A stretch of DNA of 64,000 nt from an uncultured Acidobacteriota bacterium. Its GTDB lineage: Bacteria; Acidobacteriota; Vicinamibacteria; Vicinamibacterales; SCN-69-37. The stretch is taken from the NCBI GenBank assembly GCA_963816795.1, contig CAWFLT010000003.1, positions 210,202-274,201 on the forward strand, written 5' to 3'. Below the pieces are notes generated by a model. The model was given only the letters and a program-made list of their open reading frames with translations, made no database searches and was not told the origin of the DNA. Below, piece after piece: positions 1-64,000 of this stretch. Made by a program: the position numbers and the translations under genes. Every line of letters begins with the position of its first letter. Positions within the stretch are counted from its first letter, which is position 1.

Positions 1-2
1 CG

Positions 3-146
3 CTGGGCTGGGAGCTCCTGGCATTCGTCGGCGTCGAAATGCACCGGTCTCAGGTGGTGAGGACAGAGGCGGAGATCGGCGATCTCTCGGACCGATGGAA
101 GGCCGAAGCGGTCGCGAAAGGCTGGACCGCCACCTCAGCCGAGTAG
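3..146 (+). CDS. C-terminal end of an unidentified CDS entering from upstream (partial)
   Basis: Open frame from the window edge to TAG 144-146 (...GWELLAFVGVEMHRSQVVRTEAEIGDLSDRWKAEAVAKGWTATSAE*). No recognisable motif. Confidence 0.3.
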   Translation: MGWELLAFVGVEMHRSQVVRTEAEIGDLSDRWKAEAVAKGWTATSAE

Positions 147-165
147 TTGCGCCACCGTCCGCATC

Positions 166-591
166 ATGAAGCATCAGGTGTCGCCCGAGGACGAAGCGTT
201 CCGGATCGCGTTCGAGGCGGGCCGCGTGGCGCCGGCACAGTTCGATCACCGCGCGCATGTGCGCCTCGCCTATGTGTACCTCGTCGAGCACGACACGGAC
301 GCCGCGACCACGCGGATGCGTCACGCGTTGCAAGGGTTTCTGCAGCGTCATGGCATCGCCGCCACGAAGTACCACGAGACGCTGACACGCGCCTGGACGC
401 TCGCGGTCCGGCACTTCATGGAGCGATCGCCAGGGACGGCCTCCGCTGAGACGTTCATTGCCCGGAATCCCGACCTGCTCGACAGCAAGATCATGCTCAC
501 GCATTACTCGGCGTCGCTGCTGTTCTCGGCGGAGGCGCGCGATGCCTTCGTGGAACCCGACACGAGCCCGATCCCTCGCTATCCAGAGTAG
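166..591 (+). CDS. conserved hypothetical protein (141 aa)
   Basis: Clean ORF with protein-like composition (MKHQVSPEDEAFRIAFEAGRV...), followed by a hairpin plus T-tract. No family recognised. Confidence 0.6.
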   Translation: MKHQVSPEDEAFRIAFEAGRVAPAQFDHRAHVRLAYVYLVEHDTDAATTRMRHALQGFLQRHGIAATKYHETLTRAWTLAVRHFMERSPGTASAETFIARNPDLLDSKIMLTHYSASLLFSAEARDAFVEPDTSPIPRYPE

Positions 592-595
592 AGCG

Positions 596-621
596 GCGTT
601 GGGCCTGACCCCAACGCTTTT
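596..621 (+). terminator. rho-independent terminator candidate
   Basis: 8-bp stem GCGTTGGG/CCCAACGC (596-603/610-617) with a 6-nt loop, then TTTT (618-621). It lies a few nt after the stop at 589-591. Confidence 0.65.
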
Positions 622-2082: not shown

Positions 2083-3955
2083 ATGCGACGGCGACTGAGC
2101 GTGCTGGTTCCGGCACTTCTCGGCGTGGCGGTCACCGCCTGGACCGCCGCGGCGATGCAGCGGCGCGCGGTCGACGATGCCGCGCTGAGGAACGCGCCGA
2201 AGAACGCCAATGAATGGCTGACGGTCGGGCGTGACTATGCGGAACAACGCTATAGCCCGCTGACCCAGATTACGGCCGCGAACGTCAACCGGCTGGGCCT
2301 GGCCTGGTCCTACGAAGTCGGCGACGGAGGCGGTCCGCAGCAAGCGACGCCGCTCATGGCCAACGGCGTCCTCTACGGCATCACGAACTGGAGCATCGTC
2401 TTCGCGGTCGACGCCCGGACCGGCAAGGAGCTCTGGCGTTACGACCCGAAGGTGGATCGCTCGATCGCCGGGTTCGGAACGAGCCGGCTCTGCTGCGGCG
2501 TCAACAGCCGCGGTGTCGCGTTGTACGAAGGCAAGGTGATCGTGCCGGTGCTCGATGGCCGGCTCCAGGCGCTCGACACGGCCACGGGGAAGCTGCTCTG
2601 GTCGGTCATGGCGGTCCCGGCCGATTCCGTGTCGTACTCGATCACCATGGCGCCGCGAGTCGCGCGAGGCAAGATCTTCATCGGCAACGCCGGCGGTGAG
2701 TTTCCCCCGTACCGCGGCTATCTGTCGGCGTTCGACGTCAACACCGGCCGCGAGATCTGGCGCTTCTACACGACGCCCGGAGATCCATCCCAACCGTTCG
2801 AGAACGACGCGATGGCCAGGGCTGCGAAGACGTGGACAGGCGAATGGTGGAAGCTCGGCGGTGGCGGATCGATCTGGGATGGGATGGCGTACGACCCCGA
2901 CGCCAACCTGGTCTACGTCGGCACCGGGAACGGCACGCCGTGGTCGCAGGACGTCCGGCAGGGGAAGGCCACCGAGCATCTCGACAATCTGTATATCGCA
3001 TCGATCCTTGCGATCGATGCCGACACTGGCCGGTTGAAGTGGCACTTCCAGTGTACGCCGGCGGATCAATGGGACTTCGACGCCGTGCAGCACCTGATGC
3101 TCGCCGACCTGCGGATTGGCGGGCGGGCGCGCAAGGTGATCTTGCAGGCCAACAAGAACGGCTACTTCTATGTGATCGATCGGATCTCCGGCGAGTTCCT
3201 CTCCGGCGCGCCGGTCGCACCGGTGAGCTGGGCGCGCGGCCTCGATCCGAAGAGGCCGGCCGATCGTCAACGCCGAGGCGCACTACACCGCCGAGCAAGG
3301 GGTGACCATCTCGCCGCTCCAGGCGCACAACACCGCGCAGATGGCCTTCAATCCGGCGACGGGATTGGTCTACGTGCCGCTCGCCTCGGCGTCGAGCTTC
3401 TCGTTTACCGGCACCAACCATTTCGAAATCACCCCGGGGGCGCAAGCGTGGGGGCTGCGCGGCCGCGGCGACACCGGGCCGAGGCCGCCGCTCGCCGTGC
3501 CGCCGGCCTACGGTCCCGATCGCGGGCTGGCGCGCGGAAACACCGGCATCCTCTCGGCCTGGGATCCGGTGACGCAACAGGAGCGCTGGTACACCGCCGG
3601 TGGAGGACAGAGCGGCGGCGGCGCGCTGTCGACCGCGTCCAATCTCGTCTTCCAAGTCACGCCGCAGGGCCGGCTGTTGGCCTATACAGCGGACAAGGGA
3701 GAGAAGCTGCTCGACATCAGCAGCGGCCAGACCACGGGCATGGGGCCGCCGATGACGTATCTGCTCGACGGCAAGCAGTACATCGCCTTCATGGGCGGCC
3801 GCGGGATCCCGCCGGCGGGTAGCCGTGGCCTGCCTCCGCCCGCCGAGCCGACAACGGGCGCTGCCCCGCCCCTTCCTTCCCCGCCGCCGGCGAGCGCGCA
3901 GGTCTTGCCGCGGATGTACGTGTACACGCTCGACTCGCCGTTCGATAGCCGCTAG
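2083..3955 (+). CDS. PQQ-dependent alcohol (methanol/ethanol family) dehydrogenase; frame disrupted near 3252
   Basis: Signal peptide, vicinal Cys pair (SRLCCGVNSRG) and propeller repeats (ATPLMANGVLYG, DARTGKELWRY, DTATGKLLWS). The N-terminal 390 aa sit in ORF 2083.. and the remainder in ORF 3302..3955. The join ...GLDPK/GRPIVNAEAHYTAEQGVTISPLQ needs a 1-nt correction. Confidence 0.9.
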
Positions 3956-7740: not shown

Positions 7741-9172
7741 CGCCGCGCTGGGGGCGGGCTGACCTCTGGGGCAGGAACGGGCGGACTGGCGAGCAAACGA
7801 CCGGCGGGTGTGGGCGGCGCCTCGATCTCCTTGTGGCAGTACTCGCAGTCCGCGTTAATCGTGGTGCCGTCTTTTGCCGTGAGCGATCCGTCGTGGCAGC
7901 GGACGCACCCGAACGACGTGGTGTGCCCGAGGTTGTCGGGATAGGTACCGAACGTGACTTTCATGGTGGGAAACACGTTTCGGCGGTAGATCGTCCTGCA
8001 GCGTGCTCACCGCCCCGGTGACCTGGGCATCCACGGCGCGGCCGCGTGATGTGTAGAACTTCCGCAACTCCTCGTCGATGACGCGCGCGCCGTCTTCCGT
8101 GGTCGGGTGACTCGCCTGCAGCAGGCGGACGGCTTCACGCCGGACGAACGGCAGCCCGCGGTCGATGCGTCCCGCGGCAATCGCCGCATCCACTGCCTGC
8201 TCGGCGGCCGGCGAGATCCGATGAGCCGGGACGTTGTGGCAGTCGATACAGTCCATCGTCCGCCAGGTGCCCTTCGCGAGCTCCTCGGGCGTGGTGTCCG
8301 GGGCCGTGTACTCGCGGACCCGGCCCTGCGCATCCGTGTACTTGACGAACCGAATGGTCTGGCGTTCGGTGTCCGTGTGGAGGAATTCGATGCGCACGCG
8401 CGGATCGGCGTGCCAATGGATGGCGCGGCCGCTCGGCGTCGGCGCGCCCGGACCGCCCAGGTACATCTGCAGGATCGTCCTCGTCTCCGTGTTCGTCTCG
8501 TCGTCCGCGTAGGCCCGATAGACACGAACGACGTCGCCGGACGCCTTGCCCGACCAATGACACGCCCCGCAAATCTCCTGCGCGGGACGCATATCGGCAA
8601 CCCCTGGGATCGGCCGCGGATAGTGGCCCGTGACCACGTGATAGAGCTGCCGCAGGCCGTTCATCTTGTACTTGACGAATGCGCGGCCCCCTTCGCCGAT
8701 GTGGCATTGCACGCAGGTGACCTGCTGAGTGCGAAGCGCCCTGCCACGCTGTGAACTGCGGGTGCATCGGCGTGTGGCACGTCTGACCGCAGAACGCCGG
8801 GGATTCCATCGAGTGGAGCCCGCCATATCCCGCAACCAGCACAATCGCGACATTGACGGCCGTCAGCGCGACGACCATCAGGACCCGGCGACGGGTCACC
8901 GGTGACCTGAAATCGAAGACGGGCCACTCCCGTACGGCCTCGGGGTGCCGCAGCTGCCGGCGGCGCTCGAGCCACATGCCGAACGGCATCAGCAGCAGGC
9001 CGAGTACGAAGAGCGCCGGCACCGCGACGAAGACGACGAGCGCGGCGTACGGGTTATCGAAGAGGCCGAGCAGGAGCCCGGCGAGCAGGGCGAGAAACGC
9101 CACGGCGCTCACCGTGGTCAACACGGCGCCCGCGATTGAGATCGGATGTCGGGCCAGATTGCGGCTCGCCAC
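7737..9172 (-). CDS. membrane-anchored hexahaem c-type cytochrome, NapC/NirT(CymA)-like; 2 frame disruptions (~8730, ~7992)
   Basis: Pieces from ORFs 8135..9172, 7855..8853 and 7737..7976 join colinearly. There are two N-terminal TM helices. CXXCH-type motifs: CGQTCH, CVQCH, CGACH, CIDCH, CVRCH, CEYCH. Confidence 0.8.
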
Positions 9173-9183
9173 GCAACAACGCC

Positions 9184-9552
9184 CTATTTCTTCAGGCTCT
9201 GCATGTAGGCGACGAGCGCATCGATGTCAGCGGGCGGAAGCTTGTCGTACTTCTTCGCCATCGGCGGCTTCTTCGTGGAGCTCACTTTCTTGGCCATCAC
9301 GATCGGCTCGACGATCCACTGGCGGGTGTCGTCAGCCGAGAGCTTCGAGCCGACGCCGTCCAGCGGGCTCTGCTTCCCACCCTTGCCGGCGATGGTATGG
9401 CACTGCGTACACTTCTGGGCCTGGTAGACCTGCTGGCCTTTCTTGATCAGCGCGGCGTCCTGTGCACGCACCACGCGTGGCGTGCCGACCACAAGCGCGG
9501 CGGTGAGCGCGGCCATGAAGAGCCCACCGGTAATCACGACTTTCCGCATCAT
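9184..9552 (-). CDS. periplasmic monohaem class I cytochrome c
   Basis: Signal peptide MMRKVVITGGLFMAALTAALVVG. Single CTQCH motif with a distal Met region. AAGGAGG lies just upstream of the ATG pair. Confidence 0.85.
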   Translation of the reverse strand: MMRKVVITGGLFMAALTAALVVGTPRVVRAQDAALIKKGQQVYQAQKCTQCHTIAGKGGKQSPLDGVGSKLSADDTRQWIVEPIVMAKKVSSTKKPPMAKKYDKLPPADIDALVAYMQSLKK

Positions 9553-9580
9553 GCCTCCTTGTCTTGCGATCGGTGAAAGC

Positions 9581-11798
9581 TTACCACCGATACACAACGC
9601 CGAACATCGTCGAGTGGGCGGTGTAGGGCCGATACACGTAGCCCATGACCAGCGAACTCGGCTGCACGATGCCGTTGACCACGCTCGGGTCGAACGCGAA
9701 GTCGTAGATGCTCAGCGGCTCGTACAGGTACGAGAACGACGCGGTGAGGCGGCTGGAGAGCCGGTACCGCACGTCGAGGTGCAACTGCTGCAGCTTGTTG
9801 AACACGTTGGGCAGCTGATTGGGCGCCGGGATGGGGCTGCCCACCGGGATGGTGTAGAGGTAGTTCCCCTCTGCGTGGCTGAAGTCGTACGAGAACCGGA
9901 TTTCAGTGTTCTGCCCGATGCGTGGAGGGCTGGCGTAGATCGAGAAGTAGTGCACCGTCTCGGTCGAATCGGCGGTCCAGTCGCGCAGCGGATCGTTGAA
10001 CTGGGCCGTGGACGAATCCCCCTCGTGCGAGCGCTGCAGCCCGGCGTAGCGCTCGTAGTTGTAGCGTCCCGCCCGCGCCCAGGCCGTTCGGCCGCTGGAA
10101 ATCAGCCGCGAGCGAGAACGTACGGCCGCTGGAATCCTGCAGGCCGTAGAAGCTGTTGCTGAATTCGTCCTTGAGGATGCCGGTGCGACACGCTGAACGT
10201 CCAGGCGTCGGACGGCACGATGTCGGCCTGGACCGTGAAGCGATTCCTCGTCCGATCGGCGAGGTCGTAGTGGCGCATCTCGGGATGCTCGCCAATGTCC
10301 GTCAGCAGCGTTTCGTCGAGCCCTGAACCGGTGCGATCGCCGAACTCGTATTGCGTCCGGAACGTGAGCCACGAGGTTCCGACGGCATCGGCCGACACGC
10401 GGAACACGTTCTCGCCGCTCGACTCGACGATCCGCGCATCGTAGCCGTTCCCGTTGTGCGAGTAGCCGAACGTGAGCGCGAACGGCATCAGCTTCGTCCA
10501 GGTGGCGTCGCCGTCGAAGGTCGTCCGGCTGTGCGCGTAGAGGTCCGGACCGCCCGTGGGCGTCGTCGACACGTTCCCGTCGTAGGCGACGTACTGCGTG
10601 ATGCTCGTCGCCGGCATGTGGTTGGCGTAGGTGTAATTGCGGAAGCGCGCGCCGAACCGCCAGTCGGTCGTGCGCGACGTCAGATTCAGGTTCGTCGAGA
10701 ACACGTGCGCCTTGGCGTCGGCGTTGGCGCGCGGCAGCGCGATCGGCGCGACCGTCGAATTGATGGTGAACGGCTCCAGCGGCTCGTCGTTGCTCCACAC
10801 TCCGTAGGAGAAGGAGCCAGTCACCTGGGTCCTTTGCGCCAGCTTGGTGTACCCGCCGAAGCTGATGGTCTGCGCCGAGTTCGACGGCCAGAGGGACATG
10901 CGTCCGCGTCCGGAGTTGCCAGCGACGTCGTCGAGGCGGAGCGGGCTGTCCCAGACCAGCGTCGGCGCGAGGTTGTCGAACCACGACCCGCTGTAGGCGA
11001 CGCGCAGCATGTTGCGCGGGTTCGTCCACTCGGTGCCGATGGTGAAGTCGTTCGCGCGCGACTCGTAGGGAAGGGCCACCTCGACGTCGTTGCTGAACCC
11101 GAAGCTGGCTCCCCACGGCAGCTCGCCGCCGTGTTTCTGCGTGATGAAGCTGGCCGTGACGTCGAGGTTCGTCTTCGGCGTCGCGACCACATCGACGCGA
11201 CCGATGTCGCGCCGCTCGTGCAGCTCGAACTGCGGCGCGAGCGGGACGTAGGCGTTGAGATTGGCCTGGCCGTTCTGGATCGCGCGCTGCGTCGCGTCGT
11301 CGAGCACCAGCGTGCCGCCGCTGCCCGTATAGGGCGTCATCGTGTCGACGCTGTAGAACTGCGGGATCTGCTGGAAGCTCCCGGTGACCGACAGCTTCCC
11401 AACACGGTTGTAGTTGGCGAAGTACTCCTGATCGCGCCAGCCCAGGTTGTTCGCGCGCGCGTCGAAGGTGTAGGCGCCGGCGGGCTGCGCGAACGCATAG
11501 CGGAAGCCGGAGAAGAGCAGCCCGTCGCGGACGTCCTGGTAGCGCTGAAAGCGCGCCGGGTCGCCGTCGATACTGGTGGCGCGGCCGCCGATGAAGAGCT
11601 CCCGGTCGGTCAGCGCGAACAGGCTGCGCGCGTATCCTCGGCCGCGGTCGGGCGCGCGGGGCTGGCGGCCGGCGTCGGCGCTGCCGGTTGTGCCGGCTTC
11701 TGCGTCGGCGGCGGCGCTCCCGCCTGGGCCAGCGCCCGCTCCGGCGCGGCGGCGGCGCCAACGAAAAGGATCAGCGCAATGAACGAGAGGCGTCGCAT
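9581..11798 (-). CDS. MtrB/PioB/MtoB-family outer-membrane porin; about 3 frame disruptions (~11625, ~10190, ~10085)
   Basis: The signal peptide ([25 protein letters not shown]), a middle 412-aa ORF (10102..11340, open further upstream) and the C-terminal part (...[16 protein letters not shown]...[18 protein letters not shown]) join colinearly. It is about 739 aa of beta-strand-rich sequence immediately downstream of a decahaem gene. Confidence 0.8.
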
Positions 11799-11811
11799 GA
11801 TCGTGTCTCCG

Positions 11812-19124: not shown

Positions 19125-19141
19125 GGGTCCTCGTTTCGGAC

Positions 19142-51487: not shown

Positions 51488-51550
51488 TGAACAACCTCCT
51501 CGAAAAAGCCACGACATGGTACGGTACGCGCACCCTTCGGGAGCGCATCG

Positions 51551-52453
51551 TTGGAAATCTATCTCGTCGACGGCACGTACGAGTTGTTTCGTCACTACTT
51601 CGCGCTGCCGCCCGCACAAGACGCGGAGGGCCGCGAGGTCGCGGCGGTACGCGGCGTCCTCACTTCGATGCTGGGCCTGATCAATTCAGGCGCGACGCAT
51701 CTTGGCGTCGCGACCGATCACGTCATCGAGTCGTTTCGCAATCGCTTGTGGCGAGGCTACAAGACGAGCGCCGGCGTGCCCGCCAACCTCATGTCGCAGT
51801 TTCAGCTGCTCGAAGACGCGTTGACGGAGCTCGGCGTAGTCGTCTGGCCGATGGTCGAGTTCGAAGCGGACGACGCCCTGGCCGCCGCCGCAGAGCGAGC
51901 GGCTGCCGATCCGCGAGTGACGCGTGTCGTGATCTGCACGCCCGACAAGGACCTGTCGCAGTCGGTCCGCGGCACCCGCGTGGTGCAGCTCAACCGGCGG
52001 ACCCGCGAGTTCCGTGACGAGAACGGCGTGATCGCGAAGTTCGGCGTGCCGCCTTCCGCGATTCCCGACTATCTGGCGCTCGTCGGTGACAGCTCGGATG
52101 GCTATCCCGGCCTGCCGGGCTGGGGGCCCAAGTCGACGGCAGCCGTACTGGCACGCTTCGGTCACCTGGAGGCCATCCCGGAAGACTGGCGCGAGTGGCA
52201 TGTCAACGCCGCGAGCCCCGCCGCGCTGGCCGCCACATTCGTGCGCGAGCGCGATCGCGCGCTGCTCTTCCGAACGCTGGCGACGCTGAGGACCGATGCG
52301 CCGGTGTTCGATCGCGTGGACGACCTGGCCTGGCACGGTCCGCGGCCCGGCTTCTCGGCCTTCGCCGCAAAGCTCGAGGCGGCTGGTGCGGCGTCCAGTC
52401 CTCAACCAGGGCGACGCGGACAGGCCCGCGACACACGGCGAGACAGGCGGTGA
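51551..52453 (+). CDS. 5'-3' exonuclease / flap endonuclease (Pol I N-terminal domain-like)
   Basis: TTG start. IYLVDGTYELFRHYF..., VEFEADDALAAAA, YLALVGDSSDGYPGLPGWGPKSTAAVL (H3TH). Confidence 0.85.
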   Translation: MEIYLVDGTYELFRHYFALPPAQDAEGREVAAVRGVLTSMLGLINSGATHLGVATDHVIESFRNRLWRGYKTSAGVPANLMSQFQLLEDALTELGVVVWPMVEFEADDALAAAAERAAADPRVTRVVICTPDKDLSQSVRGTRVVQLNRRTREFRDENGVIAKFGVPPSAIPDYLALVGDSSDGYPGLPGWGPKSTAAVLARFGHLEAIPEDWREWHVNAASPAALAATFVRERDRALLFRTLATLRTDAPVFDRVDDLAWHGPRPGFSAFAAKLEAAGAASSPQPGRRGQARDTRRDRR

Positions 52454-52461
52454 CTGGCGTT

Positions 52462-54084: not shown

Positions 54085-54093
54085 GGCATTCTG

Positions 54094-54340
54094 TCATTGG
54101 CGGGCGTAGACACATAAGAACTGCAGTTCGTTGTTGCCCCAACCGTGCCCTCCGGTCTCGACGACCCACTTCGCCGGATCGGGGGGCGCACCGGATCGCC
54201 CATCGAACTCATCCGCCCAGGTCAATTGCCAGCCCGCGAGCACCTGACGAGCGATACGCGGTCGCCTCCCCGCTGCTGGAGAAGACGGCCACGATGCCGG
54301 CGAACGCGCACGCCGCCGCCGCAGGTCTCCGCACGATTCG
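54094..54340 (-). pseudogene. 5' remnant of a GH16 (laminarinase-like) glycoside hydrolase gene
   Basis: WQLTWADEFDGRSGAPPDPAKWVVETGGHGWGNNELQ matches the GH16 N-terminal motif and stops after ~45 aa. A signal-like RRPAAAACAFAGIVAVFSS lies in another frame upstream. Confidence 0.5.
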
Positions 54341-54400
54341 GACGGTAGCACGGAACCCGCGTCTTGCACCGCTGCGTGAGCCGCCGAGTATGATGGACCA

Positions 54401-55378
54401 GTGCCAGCACCGGTGCGGGTGGCCTTTCTGGGCTGTGGCTTCATTACGCGCGTGCACAGCCAGAACGTCAGGACGCTCGCCGGGGACGTCGCGTGCAGCT
54501 ATGCGAGCCGCGACGCCGCGAAGGCCAGCGCCTTCTGTCGGGAATTCGGCGGCACGACCAGCTATTCAAGTTACCGCGCGGCACTGGACGACGCGACGGT
54601 TGACGCAGTGGTCGTGGCGGTGCCGCCCAAGTTTCATCTGGAGCTCACGCTCGCCGCGCTCGACGCGGGCAAGCACGTGCTCGTTGAGAAGCCGGCGTTC
54701 CTCGAGTTGGCCGATTACGCGACGGTCCAGGCGGCACGCGATCGGATGCAGCGCATCGTCCTGGTCGGCGAGAACGACCACTACAAGCCGCTGGCCGTCC
54801 GGCTCAGACGGCTCCTGGCCGACGGGGCGATTGGGGAGATGGTGTTTGCGCAGTTCACGACGATCGCGAAGCGTCTCAAATCAGCGGACGACTGGCGGAA
54901 TGACGAGAGCATGGCAGGCGGCGACGCGTTTTTCGAAGAAGGCATCCACTGGCTGCATCTCGCCGGCAGTCTGGGTCCTCAGATCACGGCGATTCAGGGA
55001 TTTCGGCCGGCCGGATCGATGGACGGTCCCGATCGCCGTCGTAAGAGCATGATGGTGGCCTTTCGCTACGACAACGGCGCGGTCGGAACGCTTTACTACT
55101 CGCGCGAAATCCCCTCGCTGCTGCGGGGCCTGCGCGTCTCGAAGCTGATGGGACGCGGCGGCGTCATCTCGTTCGAGTCCAACGGCGCAGCGATGCTGGT
55201 CCGCGGCCGCCGGATGCCCAGGCTGGTGCTCCCGGGGTTTCGCGACATCCGCGGCTATCAAGCCATGTATCGCGACTTCGTACGCGCCATTCGCACCGGG
55301 AGCCCTCCGGAGATGAGCCTGGAACGCGCGATGGACGACCACCGTCTGATGGACCAGATTTACGCCAGCCTCGCATAG
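54401..55378 (+). CDS. Gfo/Idh/MocA family oxidoreductase
   Basis: GTG start. VRVAFLGCGFITRVH (Rossmann), HVLVEKPAF (EKP motif). Confidence 0.85.
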   Translation: MPAPVRVAFLGCGFITRVHSQNVRTLAGDVACSYASRDAAKASAFCREFGGTTSYSSYRAALDDATVDAVVVAVPPKFHLELTLAALDAGKHVLVEKPAFLELADYATVQAARDRMQRIVLVGENDHYKPLAVRLRRLLADGAIGEMVFAQFTTIAKRLKSADDWRNDESMAGGDAFFEEGIHWLHLAGSLGPQITAIQGFRPAGSMDGPDRRRKSMMVAFRYDNGAVGTLYYSREIPSLLRGLRVSKLMGRGGVISFESNGAAMLVRGRRMPRLVLPGFRDIRGYQAMYRDFVRAIRTGSPPEMSLERAMDDHRLMDQIYASLA

Positions 55379-55383
55379 CCTCT

Positions 55384-56916
55384 TTGATGCAACACGAGCA
55401 CTACGACATCCTCATCATCGGCACCGGCGCGGGCGGCGCCACGCTCGCCCATGCCCTGGCGCCGACGGGCGCCCGCATCCTCATCCTCGAGCGCGGCGAC
55501 TACGTGCCGCAGGAAGACGACAACTGGAGTCCCGAGGCGGTGTGGAAACACCTTCGCTATCGCGCGAAGGAGCGCCTCCTCGACGAGTGGGGCAAGGAGT
55601 TTCAGCCGTACACGCACTACGGCGTCGGGGGAAACACCAAATACTGGGGCAGCGTCCTCCACCGCCTGCGGCGCGAAGACTTCCTGGATCTCGAACACGC
55701 GGGCGGCCTCTCGCCGGCGTGGCCGATTTCGTACGAGACGCTCGCGCCGTACTACGACCGGGCGGAGCGTCTCTATCACGTGCACGGCGCCGCGGGCTTC
55801 GACCCGACCGAGCCGCCGCGCGGTCCGTATCCGTTCGCGGCCGTGCCGCATTCCTCCGGCATGCTCGCGATCGCCGATCAGTTGCGCGATCTCGGTCTGC
55901 ATCCTTTCTCGCTGCCGCTGGGCCTCATCCGGCCCGGCGAGGCCGGCGGCTGCGCCCTGTGCAACACCTGCAATTCGTTCCCGTGCAAGATTCGCGCAAA
56001 GAGCGACGCGGAAGTCTGCTGCCTCGAGCCGGCGCTGACGTTCCCCAACGTCACACTGTGGACCAACGCCTTCGCGCATCGGCTGATCACGCGGCCGGAC
56101 GGGCGGGCCGTAGACGCGGTGGAGATTGTTCGGCGAAATGAGACCGTCCGGGTTTCCGCCGATGTGTTCGTGTCGTCCTGCGGCGCCATTCACTCGGCGG
56201 CGCTCCTGCTGCGGTCGGCGAACGGTCAGCACCCGCACGGTCTCGCCAACTCGTCAGGTCTCGTCGGCCGGCGCTACATGGCGCATCTGGCGACGATGAT
56301 GGAGGGGTTTCATCCGCTGCGGAAGAACGAGACGGTCTTTCAGAAGACGGTCGGGATCAACGACTTCTATCTGCCTGGCCCGGATCGGCCGTTCCCACTC
56401 GGACACATCCAATCTCAAGGGCGCACGCACGGCGTGATGGCGCAAACCGTGGTGCCGTGGATACCGCTGTGGGCCTACGAGGCCTGGGTCGCGCGCGGTG
56501 TCGACTGGCTGGCGATGTCCGAAGATCTTCCCGATCCCGAAAATCGTGTGACCGTTGAGGCCGATGGGCGCATCCGCTTGCGCTACCGGCCCAACAACCT
56601 CAGGTCGCACAACCGGCTCGTCAAGGAGATGAAGCGCGTCTTGAAAAAGCTCGGGTTCTGGGTCGTCGTGGCCCACTCGCATCGCAGCAAGAACACCACC
56701 CACCAGTGCGGCACGCTGGTCTTCGGCACCGATCCGTCCTCGTCGGTGCTCGACCCTTATTGCCGCGCGCACGATCTCTCGAATCTCTTCGTCGTCGACG
56801 CTTCGTTCTTTCCGTCGTCAGCCGCCGTCAATCCGGCGCTGACCATTGCGGCGCAGGCCCTGCGGGTCGCCGATCACATCACCGGTTCGCCGGAGCCAAA
56901 GGAGACTCGGCCGTGA
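55384..56916 (+). CDS. GMC family FAD oxidoreductase
   Basis: YDILIIGTGAGGATLAHAL...HQCGTLVFG...NLFVVDASFFPSSAAVNPALTIAAQALRVA. Confidence 0.9.
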   Translation: MMQHEHYDILIIGTGAGGATLAHALAPTGARILILERGDYVPQEDDNWSPEAVWKHLRYRAKERLLDEWGKEFQPYTHYGVGGNTKYWGSVLHRLRREDFLDLEHAGGLSPAWPISYETLAPYYDRAERLYHVHGAAGFDPTEPPRGPYPFAAVPHSSGMLAIADQLRDLGLHPFSLPLGLIRPGEAGGCALCNTCNSFPCKIRAKSDAEVCCLEPALTFPNVTLWTNAFAHRLITRPDGRAVDAVEIVRRNETVRVSADVFVSSCGAIHSAALLLRSANGQHPHGLANSSGLVGRRYMAHLATMMEGFHPLRKNETVFQKTVGINDFYLPGPDRPFPLGHIQSQGRTHGVMAQTVVPWIPLWAYEAWVARGVDWLAMSEDLPDPENRVTVEADGRIRLRYRPNNLRSHNRLVKEMKRVLKKLGFWVVVAHSHRSKNTTHQCGTLVFGTDPSSSVLDPYCRAHDLSNLFVVDASFFPSSAAVNPALTIAAQALRVADHITGSPEPKETRP

Positions 56917-57459
56917 GAGCGCGATCGTTCAGCCATGTCGGCATCACCGTCTCGAACTTCAACCGCGCGGTGCAGTTCTACTGGGAGGTCTTCGGCTGTC
57001 CGCTGGTCGGCGTCGCCGACACGCCGTCCGAGCGTGTGCGAACGTTTTTCGGGGTCGACGCCCCGGCACCGCACTGCAAGATTGGCTGGATTCGCGTGCC
57101 TGGCGGCGGCGTCCTCGAGATTTTCGCGTTCGAGCCGCAGCAGGCCGGCGGTCGCTATTCCGTGGAACCGGGTCGGGTTGACGCACTTCTCGTTCAACGT
57201 GCGCAACCTGGATCGCTGGCACGAGCACCTCGTGAGCCGAGGCGTCGAGTGCCTCGGCCGCCCCGAGCGTTCGCCGCGCGGTCATTCGTTCTTTTTCGCG
57301 AAGGATTTCGACGGCAATCTCATCGAGTTGATGGATCTGGGCTTCATGTACCACGTCCTCGGCTGGCTCGGACCGCTCGGTGGATTCCTGTTCAGGCGGG
57401 GGATGTACAAGCAGGTACTACGCTGCTCGACCTTGACCCCGCATCGGCCTCCCTACTAA
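56913..57459 (+). CDS. VOC/glyoxalase family protein; frame disruption ~57150
   Basis: GTGA overlap with the GMC stop. FSHVGITVSNFNRAVQFYWEVFGCPLVG...GGVLEIFAFE, then +1 to ...GLTHFSFNVRNLDRWHEHL...FFFAKDFDGNLIELMD. Confidence 0.7.
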
Positions 57460-57492: not shown

Positions 57493-60400
57493 ATGCGGCG
57501 CGCTCTCGCGGTCGTGCTTTTCGCTTTGACATCCGCCAGTCTCGTGTTGGCTCAAACCCAAATCACGAGTGGCGTCATCCAGGGCACGGTGGTGGATGCG
57601 ACAGGCGCGGCGCTTCCCAGCGCGAGCGTGGAGATCAAGAATCTCGACACCAATACCAGCGAGCGCCGCACCACCGACGGCGAGGGCCGCTTTACGGCGC
57701 TGCAGCTTCAGCCCGGGCGCTACACGGTCACGATTCAGCTCAAGGGGTTTTCGACGTTCGTGCAGGACGGCGTCGTGCTCACGGTCGGCCAGAGCCTCAC
57801 GCTCCGGCCACGGATGACGGTGTCGACCGTCGAGCAGACGGTGACCGTCACCGGCACGCCGGCGATCGAAACGACGCGAAGCGGCGTCGCCTCGACCCTG
57901 AACGAGAAGGTCATCGGGACGCTCCCGATCCTGGGCCGGAAGTTCGAGGACTTCCTGACGTTGACGCCGGGCGTGAGCGTCGTCCAGGGGCCGGACGGCG
58001 ACGAGATCTCCTTTGCCGGACAGCGCGGCGTCTTCAACAACGTGAGTCTCGACGGCGGCGACTACAACAACGGCTTTTTCGGCGAGCAGGCAGGCGGACA
58101 GCGCGCCCCGATTGACATCACGCTCGACGCGGTCAGGGAATTCCAGGTCATCGCGACGGGAGCGCCGGCCGAGTTCGGCCGCACCGCCGGCGGCGTGGTG
58201 AACGTCATCACCAAATCCGGCACCAACGCCCTGCGCGGCAGCCTCTTCTATTTTCAGCGTCTCGAAGCGCTCACCGGCGACTTGTCGGACGGCACCAAGT
58301 TGGAGGACTTCCACCGCGAGCAGTTCGGCGGGACGGCTGGCGGACCGATCAAGAAGGACAAGGTGTTCTTCTTTGCAGCGCTCGAAGGGATCACCGGTGA
58401 CTTCACGCGGCCGAACCTGAGCGTGCCGATCGGCACGCCCTGCCCGGTGTCGGCGCCGGTCATCCCGGCCGACGAAGCGCTCATCAACGGCAGTCCCGAT
58501 TGTCAGCGGCGCGCGCTGCTGTCGTTCTTCCAGTCGCGGCTCGGACGGGACGAAAGTCTGCCGATCGGGCATCCGATCAACACGACTGCGCTCCTGCTCA
58601 AAGGCGATGCGAACCTGAACGAGAACAATCACCTCACGATTTCGTACAACTTCAACCACTCACGCAAAGAAAACGAGACGTTCGACGTGGCGACCTATGG
58701 TCCCTCTGCCAACGGCATCGAGGGCAACCCCGCGCGCATCAACGTCGTGAACGCCAATTGGTTTTCGACCCTCTCGTCGAGCAAGCTGAACGAATTTCAT
58801 TTCACCTACTCCCGCGAGTCGCGGCCGAGACAGGCGGTCGACGCGATATCGCCGGATACCGGGATGGGCTTCGGCCCGTCGTTCCGGTTCGGGAATCCCT
58901 ACTTCCTGCAGCCGGCCGTCGACGAACTGATCTGGCGGACGCAGTTCAAGAACAACCTGTCGTGGATCCGCGGCGGCCACACGATCAAGATCGGCGCCGA
59001 ATGGATGCACACCTTGAACGATCAGGTGTTCCGCGGGTTCTTCACGGGCCGCTACATCTTCGACAGCGTCTCGTCGTTCCTTCGCTACACCTCACCGGCG
59101 GCGCCAGGCGGGTTCGGTCCCGTCCACCATCGGCTGTTCGGGCGGCGTGTATGTGACCGCGCCGGCGTCCTGTCCGGCCGGAACGACCACGACGGGCGGT
59201 CCCCTGCTCCTCTACCTCCAGGGTGCGGGCCGCACGGGGCTGGCGACCGACGCGGCCGGCGCCTCGACGATCTCGAACGAAGAGTTTGGCCTGTTCGTGC
59301 AGGACCAGTGGCAGGTCAAACCGGGGCTGACGCTCAACTACGGGCTGCGCTGGGACGCGCAGATCATGCCGGACACGGTGGATCCGACGACGACTGCATA
59401 CGGGCGGTTCCTGAACGATCCGACGTTCCCGAGCGACGGCACGATTCCCAACCAGACCAACATGTGGCAGCCGCGCCTCGGGCTGGCATGGGATCGCAAG
59501 AACGACGGCAACTCGGTGTTCCGCGCGAACTTCGGCATTTTTTCGGCGCGCCAGAACATGCTGACCCAGGTCGGATCGGTGACCACGAACGGGCTGCAGC
59601 AGCAGACGATCTTCCTGCAGACCGATCTGCACCGTCAGTTCGGACTCCCGATGCCGGTGTGGCCAGGGGTGGTCGCGCCGGCGCCGGTGCCGGAGGGCGC
59701 CTTCCCCGACTTCTCAGGCGTGCGCGTGTTCGATCGCGACTACAAGAACCCGCGTGTCTACTCCTTCAACGTCTCGTACGAGCAAGAGCTGGCGCCCGAT
59801 TGGGCGGGATACGTCGACTTCATCTGGACCAAAGGCACGAACCTCAGCCGGTTTCTCAACTACAACCGCTCCGGCGCCGTCTGCTGCGACGTGAGCCAGG
59901 CCAACGGTGGGACGGGCAACGTCTTCACGTACCCGGGCGCGCCGCCCTGGGGCCCGGCGCTCGGTGAGGTCATGGTGGCGACCAGCGTCGGCCACTCGCT
60001 CTACCGCGGCCTCACCCTCGGCGTGCGCAAACGGTTCTCCGATAAGTACCAACTCGAGGCCAACTACGTCCTCGCCAAGGATGAAGACGACGACAGCAAC
60101 GAGCGCGATCCCTTCACCGATCGCAGCTTCAACTTCTTCGATCTCGACCTCGACTACTCGCTCTCGGATCGCGACATCCGTCACAAGTTCAACCTGTTCG
60201 GGTTCTTCGAGCTTCCAGCGCAGCTGAACCTGAACGCGCGCGTGCAGGCGCGGACGGCGCAACCGATCACGCCGTCGCCACGCGTCGTCGAACGGGAACG
60301 ATCGCGGCCGCAACAGCGACTCGCAAGGACAACGCGTACTTCAGCTTCGACTGGCGGCTGACGCGGGCGTTCAAGGTCGGTGCGCGCTACGAGATCATCC

Positions 60401-60546
60401 CCATGGTGGAGATGTTCAATACGTTCAACAACGCCAACAACCTCAACCCGCTGTCGACGCCGGCGCTGTTCGACTTCTCCGGCTTCCTGCGGACCGGTGT
60501 CGGCGATCCGAGACAGTGGCAGCTGGCGGTCAAGTTCACGTTTTAG
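57493..60546 (+). CDS. TonB-dependent receptor with N-terminal CarboxypepD_reg-like domain; about 3 frame disruptions (~59135, ~60290, ~60318)
   Basis: Signal peptide. GVIQGTVVDATGAALPSASVEIKNLDTNTSERRTTDGEGRFTALQLQPGRYTV. Plug (...ISFAGQRGVFNNVSLDGGDYNN...GGVVNVITKSG). Barrel. Hand-translated end ...RKDNAYFSFDWRLTRAF...QWQLAVKFTF*. Confidence 0.85.
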
Positions 60547-60757: not shown

Positions 60758-60789
60758 TTAGAGGTCTTGGGTTGGAGTAGGATGGCGCC

Positions 60790-61734
60790 ATGCTGAAGAT
60801 CTCCACGACCCTGCGCGCCGCCACCTGGCTGGCCATCGTCGCGGCCAGCTTGTCGCTGACTTCGTTCACGGTCCGCGGCGCCGACAAACGGATTGTCATC
60901 CTGGCGGGCCGCCCCAGCCACGGGCCGGGCGCGCATGAGTTCCGCGCCGGCAGCCTGCTGATGCAGAAGGCGCTCGCCGGATTCCCCGGCGTGTCGGTCG
61001 AGGTCATCCCGATGGGCTGGCCGACCCAGGAAGTGGACGGCAAGCGGGTGGACGACCACACGCCGCTGATGACCGCCGATGCGATCCTGATCTACGCCGA
61101 CGGCGGCAAGGGCAATCCCGCGATTCAGGGCGACCGCATGCAGGTGCTCGAGTCGCTCGGCCAAGAAGGGCGTGGGACTCGGGTTCGGGCACTACGGCGT
61201 CGAAGTACCGGCCGGCGTGCCCGGTGAAACGTTTCAGCGCTGGATCGGCGGCTACTACGAGACGAACTGGTCGGTGAACCCGATGTGGGAGCCGAAGATC
61301 GACAAGCTGCCGAACCATCCGGTCGCGCGGGGTGTGCAGCCGTTCGCGACGCACGACGAGTGGTATTTCAACATGCGCTGGACCACGGATCCCGCGCTCA
61401 AAGCCCGGGTGACGCCGATCCTGGTCGCGACGCCGAGCGACGAGGTCCGCAAAGGCCCCTACGTCAGCCCGCGCGGGCCCTACGAGCACATCGTCGCCGC
61501 CAGCGGCCAGGTCGAAACCATGATGTGGGTCATGGAGCGGCCTGACGGCGGACGCAGCTTCGGCTTTACTGGCGGGCACACCCACACCAACTGGGGCGAT
61601 CCCAATCAGCGCCGGGTGATGCTGAACGCGCTGTTGTGGATCGCCAAGGTCGAGGTGCCCGCCGGCGGGGTGCAGGACAAGATCACCGCTGCGGACCTCA
61701 CGGAGAACCTGGATCGAAGGGCGGGAAGAAGTAG
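60790..61734 (+). CDS. ThuA-domain (class I glutamine-amidotransferase-like) protein; frame disruptions ~61159 and ~61716
   Basis: Signal peptide. KRIVILAGRPSHGPGAHEF..., then +1 to GVGLGFGHYGVEVP...THDEWYFNMRW...GFTGGHTHTNWGDPNQRRVMLNALLWIAKVEVP. The end (LDRKGGKK*) is tentative. Confidence 0.75.
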
Positions 61735-61745
61735 GTCAGACCGGA

Positions 61746-62809
61746 CTAGCGCCAGCGGAACAGCTTCAACGCCAGCACGAAGGAGACCACGAGCCAGACC
61801 GACCAGCGCGGCGAGCTGCGGCACGAGCTGCGCGCAGGCCGGCGCCCTGCAGCATGTTCGCGCGCAGCGCGTCGATCAGCGCCGTCAGCGGCAGCGCCTT
61901 GATGAACGGCTGCACGACGTCGGGAAATCGCTGCGCCGAGAAGAACACGCCGGACAGGATCCACATCGGCATCATGACCACGTTCATGAGGCCGGAGACG
62001 CGCCTCGATCGTCCGCGCCCGCGAGGCGACCAGGAGCCCGAGCGCGCTGAACGCACAGCGATCCCAGCGACGCAGATCGCGGCCAGCTCGAGCAGCGAGC
62101 CGCGCACCGGCACGCCGAAGGCGACGACGCCGAACCCGACCGGCACGCCGACCTCGACCACGAGCAGCAGCCATGCGCCAGACCAGGAACGACAGCAGGT
62201 AGTACGGCCGCGACATCGGCGTCGCCGACGAGCCGCTTCATCAGCTTGCGGCGGCGCGCGTCGACGATCGAGAAGCCCAGGCCCCAGACGGCGTTGCCCA
62301 TGATGCCCATGCCGACCAGGCCGGGCATCAGGAAGTCGATGTAGCGCGAGCCCGGCTCGCGCACGAGCTCGTCCTGACCGGCACCGGATCGACGCGTCCG
62401 CCGGCCACGCTGCACGGCGCGGTCGGCCAGCCGCGCGCGCGGTCCGCGCCTCGGGATTGGTGTCGTCGTAGCGATACGACACGCCGCCGTCCGGCGCCGG
62501 CTCGACGACCAGCGCGACCTTGCCCGTCGCGCAGCGCCTGCGCCGCCTGCTCGGCGCTGAGCAGCTCGACCTCGACAGCTGCGGGTCGCCTGCCGAGCGA
62601 CGCCGACGAGCTCGGCGGACGTCGCGGCGATCTTGAGCGACCTCCGCGGGCTGGTTCCGGAACGCGACGCCGAGGCCGGCCGCAGCAGGATCACCGGGAA
62701 AGACCACCGCCCAGAACACCGCCTCGGGCTCGCGGACGAACTCGCGGCACCGCGCACCAGCGTCAGCTGGACCAGCGGATGCGAACGCGCCAGGTGCGGA
62801 CTCACTCAT
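61746..62809 (-). pseudogene. ABC-2 type transporter permease, at least 6 frame disruptions
   Basis: Fragments: REFVREPEAVFWAVVFP; YIDFLMPGLVGMGIMGNAVWGLGFSIVDARRRKLMKRL; MSRPYYLLSFLVWR; LMNVVMMPMWILSGVFFSAQRFPDVVQPFIKALPLTALIDALRANML; ...VWLVVSFVLALKLFRWR*. ATGA overlap with the ATPase gene. Confidence 0.7.
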
Positions 62810-63742
62810 CGCGCAGGTGCCGTCCGGTCAGCGTCGACGAACACGTCCTCGAGCGTCGCCGAGTGCGTCCGCAGCTCCGTCAGCGGCAGGCCGCTGCTGC
62901 GCCGAGCATCCTCGAGCAGCGCCGGCACGGCGCGGTGCAGCTCGGTGACCTGCATCTGAATCTGCCGTTCCGACCGGCTTGACGCTCGCGCACGCCCGGC
63001 ACGCCCGAGAACAGCGCCGAGATCGCAGACCGCGTTGCCGGTCGAGAACTCGACGACGTGCTCGACGCCGATCGAGGCGATCAGCTCGCGCGGCGTGCCG
63101 AGCGCGATGACCTTGCCGTGATCCATGATCGCGACGCGATCGCAGAGGCTGCTCGGCTTCATCCATGTAGTGCGTCGTCAGCAGGATCGTCCGGCCCGCC
63201 TTGCTTGAACTCGTCGATCAGGTCCCAGAGCTGGCGGCGCGCCTGCGGATCGAGGCCGGTCGTCGGCTCGTCGAGGAACAGCAGGTCGGGATCGCCGACG
63301 AGCGCGCAGGCGAGCGCCAGCCGCTGCTTCTGCCCGCCCGACAGCGTGCCGACGCGCGCGTCGCGCTTCTCCTCGAGCTGCACGAGCGCGATGACGTGCG
63401 CCGGCGACGGCCCCTGCCGGTAGAAGCTGCGGAACAGCTCGACCGTCTCGAGCACGGTGAGCTTCTCGGAGAGCTGCGTCTCCTGCAGCTGGATGCCGAG
63501 CCGCTGGCGCAGCGCCGCGCGCGTCCGACGCCCAGCGCATGCCGAGCACCTCGACGTCGCCCGGAGTCCGGCGCGGTCAGCCCTTCGCAGATCTCGATCG
63601 TCGTCGTCTTGCCGGCGCCGTTCGGGCCGAGCAGGCCGAAGCACTCGCCGGCGCGCACCTCGAGGTCGAGGCCGTCGACGGCGACGACGTCCTTGTAGGC
63701 CTTGCGCAGGTCGCTCACGCGCAGCGCGACGGATCCGGTCAT
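62806..63742 (-). CDS. ABC transporter ATP-binding protein (ABC-2/DrrA-like); at least 3 frame disruptions
   Basis: Walker [14 protein letters not shown]-loop LGIQLQE, signature [12 protein letters not shown], Walker [30 protein letters not shown]. The pieces lie in three frames. Confidence 0.85.
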
Positions 63743-63752
63743 CCGTCCAGTA

Positions 63753-64000
63753 TCACTCGATCCGATACAGATGCGTCCGCGTTCGCAGGAAGAGCGCGCG
63801 GCCGGAGACCGCCGGCGAGGCCATGAAGCCGTCGTCGAGCTGGTTCTCCGCCAGCAGCTTGTATTGCGCGGCCCGCCTCGATGACGGTGGTCTTACCGTC
63901 CTCGCTGAAGAAATACACCCGCGACCCGTCGGACACCGGCGAGGCCGAGAAGGTGCCGCCGACGCGCGCGTTCCAGACCACTTCGCCGGTCTTCGCCTCG
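63753..64000 (-). CDS. PQQ-like beta-propeller repeat (BamB-like) protein, 3' end only; frame disruption ~63870
   Basis: [36 protein letters not shown], then in another frame ...[16 protein letters not shown] (stop 63753-63755). The gene continues beyond the window. Confidence 0.6.

Follow-up and report, generated by a model that had tools for sequence, protein, structure and literature searches.

Single-base frame breaks in a 64-kb window from the genome assembly of a soil acidobacterium, very probably errors of a long-read consensus

Genes and frame breaks in the window

The window, i.e., the whole stretch of 64,000 nucleotides that was analysed, carries among others a porin-cytochrome cluster, an F1Fo ATP synthase operon and genes of ABC transporters, many of which are interrupted by single-base frame breaks, as well as blocks that are clean (Table 1). 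Four lines of evidence were used: a seven-state Viterbi frame tracker based on codon usage and trained on long ORFs of the same genome, Pfam domains crossing the junctions, comparison with relatives at the DNA level, and alignments to intact homologues that allow for frameshifts. The relatives mainly used were G004 (MFD06229.bin.2.89 of the MFD-LR set, Microflora Danica) and G017 (SMAG_U782, a short-read MAG assembled with MEGAHIT). Because synteny with the relatives is patchy, the DNA alignments covered only part of the 64 kb, and those below approximately 77% identity were dropped from the site calls because the gaps in them mostly compensated each other in pairs and reflect alignment noise.

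The tracker revealed same-strand frame switches at 3251, 7989, 8726, 10070, 10185, 11632, 11864, 12092, 13099, 13880, 14209, 27060, 29218, 38954, 40193/40301, 42590, 44184, 44483, 45092, 47843, 48106, 48275, 57147, 59101, 60296, 61159 and 63870. Approximately ten additional switches lay between 48.8 and 51.3 kb and about twelve between 61.8 and 63.9 kb. The rate in the window was about 55 per 100 kb. As background, the tracker gave about one false positive of each type per 100 kb when run on 93 kb of a short-read relative, and zero on 32 kb of another one. Single Pfam stretches crossed the junctions in the genes for the MtrB/PioB porin, the Asp-Al_Ex transporter, the C-terminal domain of AtpA, the nucleotide-binding domain of AtpD, the tannase, the DAO oxidoreductase, topoisomerase IB, the MacB-like permease, the glyoxalase, the TonB-dependent barrel, ThuA, the ABC-2 permease and the ABC ATPase. 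Codon usage was the sole basis of the calls at 7992, 8730, 11625, 11891, 40240/40308, 42590, 47870-48290, 61716 and 63870.

Table 1. Genes with frame breaks and clean blocks in the window.
Feature	Position	Strand	Evidence
PQQ-dependent dehydrogenase, one net +1 break near 3252	2117..3815	+	Switch at 3251; Pfam PQQ matches reach the junction; 2-base difference at 3253 to 82%-identical G004 DNA
Porin-cytochrome cluster, about nine breaks near 7989, 8726, 10070, 10185, 11632, 11812/11864 and 12092	7816..12483	-	Pfam, CTTCH restoration, codon usage
Asp-Al_Ex/TrkA_C transporter (YidE/YbjL-like), three +1 breaks	12929..14492	-	Asp-Al_Ex 1-163/167 crosses junction 14209; G004 alignment
Clean block with pyruvate:ferredoxin oxidoreductase (PFOR) and neighbours	14541..21100	-	1193-aa ORF intact with full PFOR domain set; 0 events vs 87%-identical G017 orthologues
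Gene with two extra bases near the 5' end (21162, 21244)	21123..22045	+	Frameshift-aware alignment to 83%-identical G017 orthologue; blastn vs G004 and G017 concordant
atpA (F1 alpha subunit), one extra base at 27054-27057	25813..27357	+	ATP-synt_ab_C 1-126/126 crosses junction; base-level reading; G004, G017 and G022 alignments concordant
atpD (F1 beta subunit), extra G at 29221 (GG to GGG)	28387..29788	+	ATP-synt_ab 1-213/213 crosses junction; base absent in four relatives
Tannase/feruloyl esterase, one -1-type break near 38965	38684..40215	+	Tannase 3-488/490 crosses junction 38954; one base fewer than G004 at 38973
FAD-dependent (DAO) oxidoreductase, extra bases 44082 and 44486, missing bases 44119 and 44175	43521..44735	+	DAO 1-353/353 in one stretch; frameshift-aware alignment to G017 orthologue
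Topoisomerase IB, two extra bases (44904, 45142)	44787..45860	+	Topoisom_I crosses junction; alignment to G017 orthologue
Gene without Pfam match, three +1-type switches (47843, 48106, 48275)	47706..48578	-	Codon-usage tracker alone
MacB/FtsX-type duplicated permease, 18 breaks (10 extra and 8 missing bases)	48663..51283	-	Frameshift-aware alignment to intact homologue P0001
Clean block	51546..56900		0 events vs G017 orthologues of four genes; no frameshift-class switch
Glyoxalase-family gene, one extra base at 57141-57143	56913..57414	+	Glyoxalase crosses junction; G004 and G017 DNA and G017 protein concordant
TonB-dependent receptor-type outer-membrane barrel, extra bases 59122, 60286 and 60318	57493..60541	+	OMP_b-brl_4 crosses junction 59101; three bases absent in 82.5%-identical G004 DNA
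ThuA-like gene, net +1 break at 61159	60779..61712	+	ThuA crosses junction; G004 DNA alignment
ABC-2 permease, at least four +1-type breaks	61832..62804	-	ABC2_membrane crosses two junctions; tracker switches
ABC ATPase, eight extra bases: 63562, 63516, 63203, 63151, 63021, 62984, 62965 and 62835	62805..63742	-	Frameshift-aware alignment to intact homologue P0121

The original prediction had listed more than 40 single-base disruptions, and by all lines of evidence breaks were located at, or at most about 30 bases from, nearly every position named. Several of its sites could be placed at base level by means of the relatives: the extra G proposed for atpD was borne out by the sequences of four of them, and the extra base expected in atpA at about 27057 was located there by base-level reading and alignment. 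Two breaks expected at 21165 and 21243 turned out to be extra bases at 21162 and 21244 in the comparison with G004 and G017, and the four events assigned to 44075-44480 were all recovered in the G017 alignment of the DAO oxidoreductase gene. An apparent -1 shift in the TonB receptor gene had been read as two +1 events; comparison with G004 disclosed precisely two extra bases (60286 and 60318). Moreover, dropping one base at about 12100 gave back the CTTCH haem motif (CXXCH), as foreseen. The stretches thought to be free of breaks were indeed clean, 14.5-21.1 and 51.5-57.1 kb when compared with intact orthologues and 30.4-38.9 kb according to the frame tracker. The statement that nearly all sites are net +1 held only in part: insertions were in excess, but the resolved events comprised about 35 of the insertion type and 11 of the deletion type (76% insertions).

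The porin-cytochrome cluster encodes a decahaem MtrA-like cytochrome, an MtrB/PioB porin, a monohaem cytochrome c and a NapC/NirT-like cytochrome. Within this cluster the porin was recognized as a single MtrB_PioB stretch (profile 3-631/635) crossing the junctions 10185 and 10070; apart from these two and the one at about 12100, the breaks of the cluster were called from codon usage alone. The Asp-Al_Ex transporter gene differs from that of G004 by a net +1 at 13102-13108 and by one additional G at each of the positions 13881 and 14218.

The densest block of the window is the MacB/FtsX-type permease gene with 18 breaks in 2.6 kb (GC 0.70). Once corrected, the permease is 78% identical to P0001; alignment with two other homologues gave 17 (P0002) and 15 (P0004) events, mostly at the same positions. 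The true gene at 49-51 kb emerges only when the frames are followed. Long minus-strand ORFs in this region were rejected as genes, since they had no Pfam match as they stand, and were regarded as chance open frames in GC-rich DNA. In the ABC ATPase gene all eight events are extra bases, lying within 938 bases at a GC content of 0.71. The corrected protein is 91% identical to P0121, and five of the events were also agreed by P0122, P0123 and P0134. Both kinds of event occur in the permease block, but only insertions in that of the ABC ATPase. Two error regimes, one of isolated insertions and one of dense, mixed events, were considered and not supported, the +1 share being 76-83% at all spacings genome-wide.

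Distribution and sequence context of the breaks

The assembly consists of 22 contigs (5.85 Mb, GC 67%, completeness 84.5%). On it the tracker detected 2,573 +1 and 716 -1 frameshift-class switches, which adds up to about 3,300 candidates at a density of 0.56 per kb, and each of the 22 contigs contained 30-65 +1 candidates per 100 kb. Throughout the assembly the density of the breaks was patchy at a scale of 2-10 kb, with a blockwise distribution, and rose 3.7-fold with GC. The share of insertions was 76% in the window, 78% genome-wide and 76% in other MFD-LR MAGs. Among the genes affected in the assembly are the sole copies of rpoB, with two +1 breaks, and rpoC, with one break.

Within 40 bases on either side of the 2,573 sites, no k-mer was enriched; the best values were 1.1-1.8-fold, with stop-codon by-products on top. 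A motif as the cause, be it a methylation-motif error or a quadruplet codon of the CGGN type, was rejected on these grounds. Likewise, runs of four, five and six G/C bases near the sites were not more common than in control coding DNA (ratios 0.89, 0.65 and 0.37, respectively), and homopolymers were dismissed as the main cause. The 26 sites that could be placed lie in heterogeneous contexts within runs of one to three bases, about half of them without extension of a same-base run. Beyond the breaks, the new frame retains the codon usage, and protein identity to homologues is high on both sides of each break. Judged from the sequences, purifying selection is visible across them, as indicated by the ABC ATPase (91% identity over eight breaks), the permease (78% over 18) and the continuity of the Pfam domains.

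The MAGs of the genome collection most closely related to the analysed assembly belong to the MFD-LR catalogue, which was produced from Nanopore reads only, using Flye and one round of Medaka (PMC12313526). With the same tracker, G004 gave 34.6 +1 and 9.2 -1 switches per 100 kb, the short-read relative G017 1.1 of each type and G022 none. The roughly 3:1 excess of insertions thus recurs in Nanopore-only MAGs of the same family and is missing from short-read MAGs of that family. G004 has a completeness score of only 55%. In the 3.6-kb PFOR gene, internal frameshifts were found in 10 of 30 MFD-LR MAGs (37 extra and 12 missing bases) vs none of 17 non-MFD genomes; the loci L045 and L071 were dropped from this comparison as they fell outside the banded alignment. 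No break of the window recurred in the orthologues of G004, G017 or G022, be it in the atp operon or in the remaining genes that were aligned. DNA alignment of the atp operon disclosed that G004 has extra bases of its own, at positions other than those of the window.

Origin of the breaks

We consider it very probable that the frame breaks are residual single-base indel errors, about three quarters of them insertions, in the consensus of a long-read-only MAG, most likely assembled from low-depth Nanopore reads and never polished with short reads. The original prediction had likewise favoured insertion-biased sequencing or assembly error over biology, and this is supported by the genome-wide spread, the broken rpoB and rpoC genes, the missing common motif, the unshared breaks and the link to technology. 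One of its arguments was weakened. While atpA and atpD are indeed both broken, a second F-ATPase operon without breaks was found on contig C17 when the genome was checked for another ATP synthase operon, and because of this intact copy the two genes are a weak argument from essentiality. To judge from the origin of the relatives and from the assembly statistics (22 contigs, 5.85 Mb, 84.5%), the analysed assembly is itself most likely Nanopore-only. The genes would be whole in the organism, and a poor local consensus would have led to an extra or missing base being written into the contig. As a result, genes would come out split in gene calling and the estimated completeness would drop, here to 84.5%. 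The patchiness and the GC dependence may stem from differences in local read depth, from a mixture of strains in the polishing pile-up or from chunks left unpolished.

Indel errors of long-read-only assemblies, which appear as frameshifts, have been measured, e.g., by the IDEEL test (PMC9262707), and the Kastor tool deals with them as well (PMC12007338). The method's developers state that polishing with short reads is required for Nanopore R10.4 bins whose depth is less than about 40-fold (Sereika et al. 2022, PMC9262707). Our data resemble such errors (PMC9262707) in that single-base indels split conserved genes across a highly contiguous assembly and completeness is lowered. They differ from the published descriptions, which stress homopolymer indels, by the absence of homopolymers of four or more bases, the 3:1 ratio of insertions and the 3.7-fold rise with GC. 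Nor does the profile correspond to textbook Nanopore homopolymer deletions, as insertions dominate and none is located in a long homopolymer; this observation runs counter to an artefact. The MFD-LR study itself reports Nanopore-associated errors in MAGs of lower coverage (PMC12313526). The frameshift density of the assembly, its 3:1 bias towards insertions and its mixture of loci with few and with many breaks recur in those MAGs of that catalogue that are its relatives. However, that study linked visible effects of errors to archaeal MAGs of low GC that contain long homopolymers (PMC12313526), whereas the present genome belongs to a bacterium with 67% GC.

Genuine pseudogenisation, by genome decay or in a mutator, would make the frameshifts real mutations. 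The breaks are present in the deposited sequence, and the loss of atpA and atpD in the window could be tolerated because of the intact paralogous operon on C17. We nevertheless regard this explanation as very improbable: about 3,300 breaks would disable approximately every second gene, including the sole rpoB and rpoC, the sequences downstream of breaks are not decayed (91% identity across eight of them, codon usage kept in the new frame), relatives share no breaks, and the pattern is confined to Nanopore-only MAGs of many species and never occurred in short-read MAGs. In mass pseudogenisation as in Mycobacterium leprae and recent endosymbionts, many genes are frameshifted, indispensable ones stay whole, dead genes decay and are deleted, and the sequence does not depend on the technology. 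The window and its genome are similar in that many genes are interrupted by frameshifts, but the breaks extend to rpoB and rpoC, the affected genes show good conservation in all other respects, and the pattern tracks the technology. Collapse of co-occurring strains or species into one consensus, with indels where reads disagree, would mean assembly chimeras instead of base-calling noise. Many close Vicinamibacteria MAGs were recovered from the same soils, more than 30 PFOR genes show 87-91% identity, and the errors are patchy at a scale of 2-10 kb. Such a mixture is a variant of the artefact explanation and no true rival; as the source of the breaks it is highly unlikely, since mainly substitutions and in-frame differences would be expected and not a 3:1 excess of single-base insertions, and since PFOR, the most conserved region, where cross-mapping should be worst, is clean.

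Recoding by programmed +1 frameshifting, quadruplet decoding (e.g., by a tRNA with an enlarged anticodon loop) or transcriptional slippage would fit the three quarters of events that are +1 and the G/C-rich contexts of several sites, such as CGGG or CCGGC. As the sites have nothing in common, this explanation is to a large extent refuted already, and its probability is close to negligible. Neither a common four-base word nor a slippery site or homopolymer was found, the 26 placed sites being unrelated in context; deletions, a quarter of the events, are not mendable by quadruplet reading; and the extra bases are absent from the orthologues of relatives. In the whole assembly, which is 84.5% complete, ARAGORN listed only standard tRNAs with three-base anticodons and no tRNA with an enlarged anticodon loop. 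Among consensus errors occurring at about one per 1.8 kb, a few genuine frameshifts could be indistinguishable, with the F-ATPase operon of the window as a candidate. We assign a small chance to a minority of the breaks being real, above all in this F1Fo ATP synthase operon as a recently inactivated redundant copy, and, separately, to the non-homopolymer, insertion-biased and GC-dependent profile being a systematic Nanopore fault of Flye/Medaka at low depth.

Meaning for the genome and its relatives

Should a low-depth fault of Flye/Medaka be true, thousands of species-representative genomes in public taxonomies would be affected. Since the present assembly is a species representative, about 3,300 false frameshifts would enter protein databases as fragments. 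For automatic flagging of such assemblies, the fingerprint of 3:1 insertions, no link to homopolymers, a 3.7-fold GC rise and blockwise distribution could be used. Truncated, split or 'missing' genes in this assembly are suspect, including those of the porin-cytochrome cluster, the ATP synthase operon and the ABC transporters, and like caution applies to related long-read MAGs, e.g., G004. Inspection of the sequences leads us to conclude that the breaks are almost certainly artefacts and, almost certainly too, represent no real biological feature. As assembly errors they would therefore be uninformative on the biology of the organism, and claims of pseudogenes, recoding or gene loss should not rest on this window or genome.

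Frame breaks and their resolution in the window

A seven-state Viterbi tracker (six frames and a non-coding state) was run across the window, which is C3:210202-274201 of the source assembly, with codon log-odds trained on 1,024 long ORFs of that assembly itself (5.85 Mb, 22 contigs, 67% GC, estimated completeness 84.5%). Out of 68 same-strand frame switches, those with a stop codon of the upstream gene at most 30 bases away were regarded as gene boundaries and excluded, as were segments shorter than 60 bases. The 35 remaining frameshift-class switches comprised 27 of the insertion type (+1) and eight of the deletion type (-1), and for nearly every coordinate in the original prediction a switch was located no more than about 30 bases away. 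On control DNA of two short-read relatives, the tracker gave 1.1 +1 and 1.1 -1 switches per 100 kb (93 kb of G017) and no frameshift-class switch (32 kb of G022). Therefore, the signal in the window is far above the noise of the tracker. Two +1 switches near 23323 and 24508, the latter where the atp operon begins, had not been predicted; they belong to short segments called by codon usage only.

After joining of the frame segments, a Pfam scan gave domain matches running across the junctions; besides those in the table, junctions were spanned by Asp-Al_Ex, Topoisom_I, MacB_PCD, Glyoxalase, OMP_b-brl_4, ThuA, ABC2_membrane and ABC_tran. Single events were determined with a frameshift-aware protein-to-DNA aligner written for this analysis, in which a base may be skipped or a codon read from two bases. 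The MacB/FtsX-type permease disclosed 17 and 15 events against the homologues P0002 and P0004, mostly at the same places as against the intact homologue P0001, to which it was 78% identical once the frame was corrected. The ABC ATPase showed 91% identity to its homologue P0121 after correction. In the DAO oxidoreductase, the four events fell on the four places predicted. By protein alignments and DNA alignments to the long-read relative G004, approximately 35 insertion-type and 11 deletion-type events were resolved in the window, i.e. 76% insertions. The breaks had been described as overwhelmingly +1, which was right in direction but overstated in extent.

Base-level readings also agreed with the prediction. 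The atpD break at 29221 converts GG into GGG, and the extra base occurs neither in G017 and G022 nor in either paralogue of G004. In atpA, one extra base was placed at 27054-27057 by base-level reading and the alignments to relatives. Removal of one base near 12100 turned CTT/LSY into a proper haem motif. The apparent -1 of the TonB-dependent receptor resolved into two extra bases in the DNA alignment to G004. The identification of the porin in 7816-12483 as a TonB receptor did not hold, as Pfam assigned it to MtrB_PioB instead. It belongs to a porin-cytochrome cluster of the extracellular electron-transfer type, whose four genes appear to be broken by assembly errors alone. In atpH, the OSCP (delta subunit) match begins at profile position 53, directly after the atpF stop. 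The N-terminal third has thus either diverged or is hidden in a different frame, and the gene may contain one more undetected indel. Two mutually inverted tandem-repeat arrays (unit about 20-24 bases, e.g. GGAAAGCGCTTGAAGTTCGGGGT and its reverse complement) are located in a region that the tracker assigned as non-coding.

Frame switches, junctions and other features of the window and of contigs C14 and C17
Feature	Position	Method	Result
Predicted switches	3251, 7989, 8726, 10070, 10185, 12092, 13099, 13880, 14209, 27060, 29218, 38954, 40301, 42590, 44483, 45092, 47843, 48106, 48275, 57147, 59101, 60296, 61159, 63870	tracker	matching
Predicted switch clusters	48.8-51.3 kb; 61.8-63.9 kb	tracker	matching
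Segments at unpredicted switches	23324-23437; 24509-24766	tracker	+1
Porin-cytochrome cluster	7816-12483 (-)		MtrA-like multihaem cytochrome, MtrB/PioB porin, monohaem cytochrome c, NapC/NirT-like cytochrome
MtrB_PioB		Pfam	single stretch over junctions, profile positions 3-631 of 635
ATP-synt_ab_C in atpA		Pfam	single stretch over junction, 1-126 of 126
ATP-synt_ab in atpD		Pfam	single stretch over junction, 1-213 of 213
Tannase		Pfam	single stretch over junction, 3-488 of 490
DAO		Pfam	single stretch over junctions, 1-353 of 353
Gene	21.1-22.0 kb (sites 21162, 21244)	alignment, G017/G022 ORFs	2 extra bases
atpA		alignment, G017/G022 ORFs	1 extra base
atpD		alignment, G017/G022 ORFs	1 extra base
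DAO oxidoreductase		alignment, G017/G022 ORFs	2 extra, 2 missing bases
Topoisomerase IB		alignment, G017/G022 ORFs	2 extra bases
Glyoxalase gene		alignment, G017/G022 ORFs	1 extra base
Pyruvate:ferredoxin oxidoreductase (PFOR)	15.5-19.1 kb	alignment, G017/G022 ORFs	zero events
PFOR neighbour gene	19.2-20.9 kb	alignment, G017/G022 ORFs	zero events
Four genes	51.5-56.9 kb	alignment, G017/G022 ORFs	zero events
MacB/FtsX-type permease	48663-51283	alignment, P0001	18 events at 48751-51217: 10 extra, 8 missing bases
ABC ATPase	62805-63742	alignment, P0121	8 events at 62835-63562, all extra bases
TonB-dependent receptor	60286; 60318	DNA alignment, G004	2 extra bases
atpH	25363-25812 (+)	Pfam	OSCP
Tandem-repeat arrays	46929-47694		two, inverted
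Non-coding region	46907-47705	tracker
Second F1Fo ATP synthase operon (outside window)	C17:220400-227300	tblastn	canonical order
Genes immediately upstream of rpoB (outside window)	C14:103576-104686		three frame changes in 500 bases

Distribution over the assembly and essential genes

Frameshift-class switches called by the tracker in the whole assembly numbered 2,573 (+1) and 716 (-1), a density of 0.56 per kb. Each of the 22 contigs carried 30-65 +1 switches per 100 kb, and the window is an ordinary stretch of this assembly. The uneven density predicted for the window was met assembly-wide, with a variance-to-mean ratio of 3.7 for counts per 5-kb bin. Clean stretches of at least 10 kb made up 23% of the genome (Poisson expectation 2.4%), and the error blocks had sizes of 2-7 kb. 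With increasing GC content, break density rose steadily, being 0.58 per 2 kb for the GC-poorest decile and 2.16 for the GC-richest; in line with this trend, the densest blocks of the window (48-51 kb and 62-64 kb) had its highest GC (0.70-0.71).

The damage to both atpA and atpD had been put forward as an argument for an artefact. Both genes are indeed broken, but a second ATP synthase operon, whose existence the original prediction had raised as a question, was found on C17 using the mended proteins. Its alpha and beta subunits, each in a single frame, are 60% and 65.5% identical to the window copies, and no frameshift-class switch was detected along its length. Therefore, the argument from ATP synthase essentiality is weak by itself. 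Both operon types are present in G004, while the top matches from both G017 and G022 are C17-like. The genes rpoB (TIGR02013) and rpoC (TIGR02386) each exist in a single copy in the assembly, on C14, and are split over three and two frames, respectively, by three breaks of the +1 type. A free-living cell cannot have its sole rpoB and rpoC broken. Frame changes were also seen upstream of rpoB; the ribosomal-protein/rpoBC region therefore harbors further breaks.

Origin of the frame breaks

Recoding would have to act at recognizable sites or through unusual tRNAs. No common context was seen among the 26 sites positioned through protein alignment, where about half of the events lengthen a run that is one or two bases long and the remainder do not, and ARAGORN identified only standard tRNAs in the assembly. 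Moreover, deletions account for approximately a quarter of the events, and four-base decoding could not repair these. Within 40 bases on each side of the 2,573 +1 sites no 4-, 5- or 6-mer was enriched above 1.1-1.8-fold, the top-ranked ones carrying TAG or TA as a by-product of out-of-frame stops, and G/C runs of 4-6 bases were not enriched; compared with control coding DNA they were, if anything, rarer. Transcriptional slippage and methylation-motif errors are thus unsupported, as are programmed frameshifting and quadruplet codons. All eight extra bases of the ABC ATPase block were G or C; the G/C share of the placed sites overall was close to base composition. The errors could conceal a few true mutations, most plausibly in the redundant ATP synthase operon, although the data do not single it out.

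The breaks followed the sequencing technology. G004 (MFD06229.bin.2.89; 10 contigs, 6.5 Mb, 55% completeness) is a MAG of the Microflora Danica long-read catalogue (MFD-LR), which was produced from Nanopore reads alone by Flye (--meta, --nano-hq) and one Medaka round, and whose authors described Nanopore-associated errors in MAGs of lower coverage (PMC12313526). Earlier, the same group reported that short-read polishing was needed for R10.4 bins under about 40-fold depth (PMC9262707). In 130 kb of G004 the tracker gave 34.6 +1 and 9.2 -1 switches per 100 kb. G017 is the short-read MAG SMAG_U782, assembled with MEGAHIT. The extra bases in its atp operon reside at positions other than those in the window, so nothing was inherited. 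When the intact PFOR protein was aligned to 47 orthologous loci, 10 of 30 MFD-LR MAGs had internal frameshifts, with 37 bases in excess and 12 missing (76% insertions), while none of 17 genomes of other origin had any. The insertion share is thus equal throughout, with 76% in the window, 78% in the whole assembly and 76% in other MFD-LR MAGs. The signature of the source assembly, low completeness despite very few contigs, recurs in several genomes of the family, namely G004, G006, G007 and G012, with 9-20 contigs and 55-85% completeness. This suggests that these relatives are frameshift-laden long-read MAGs, as confirmed by the tracker for G004 only.

We infer from three features that the source assembly was obtained by long-read technology: few large contigs with low completeness, the origin of its closest relatives and the error fingerprint that it shares with them. 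The frame breaks are very probably a known kind of artefact, namely consensus errors in an assembly made from long reads only. The artefact originally proposed is supported by the genome-wide spread, the broken rpoB and rpoC, the lack of a motif and the match to the long-read MAG pattern. Candidate causes of the blocks, the GC trend, the insertion excess and the avoidance of long homopolymers are local depth, unpolished chunks and a mixture of strains in the polishing pile-up. Split, truncated or seemingly missing genes in this assembly and its long-read relatives should not be taken as biology, and protein fragments derived from these genomes will pollute databases.
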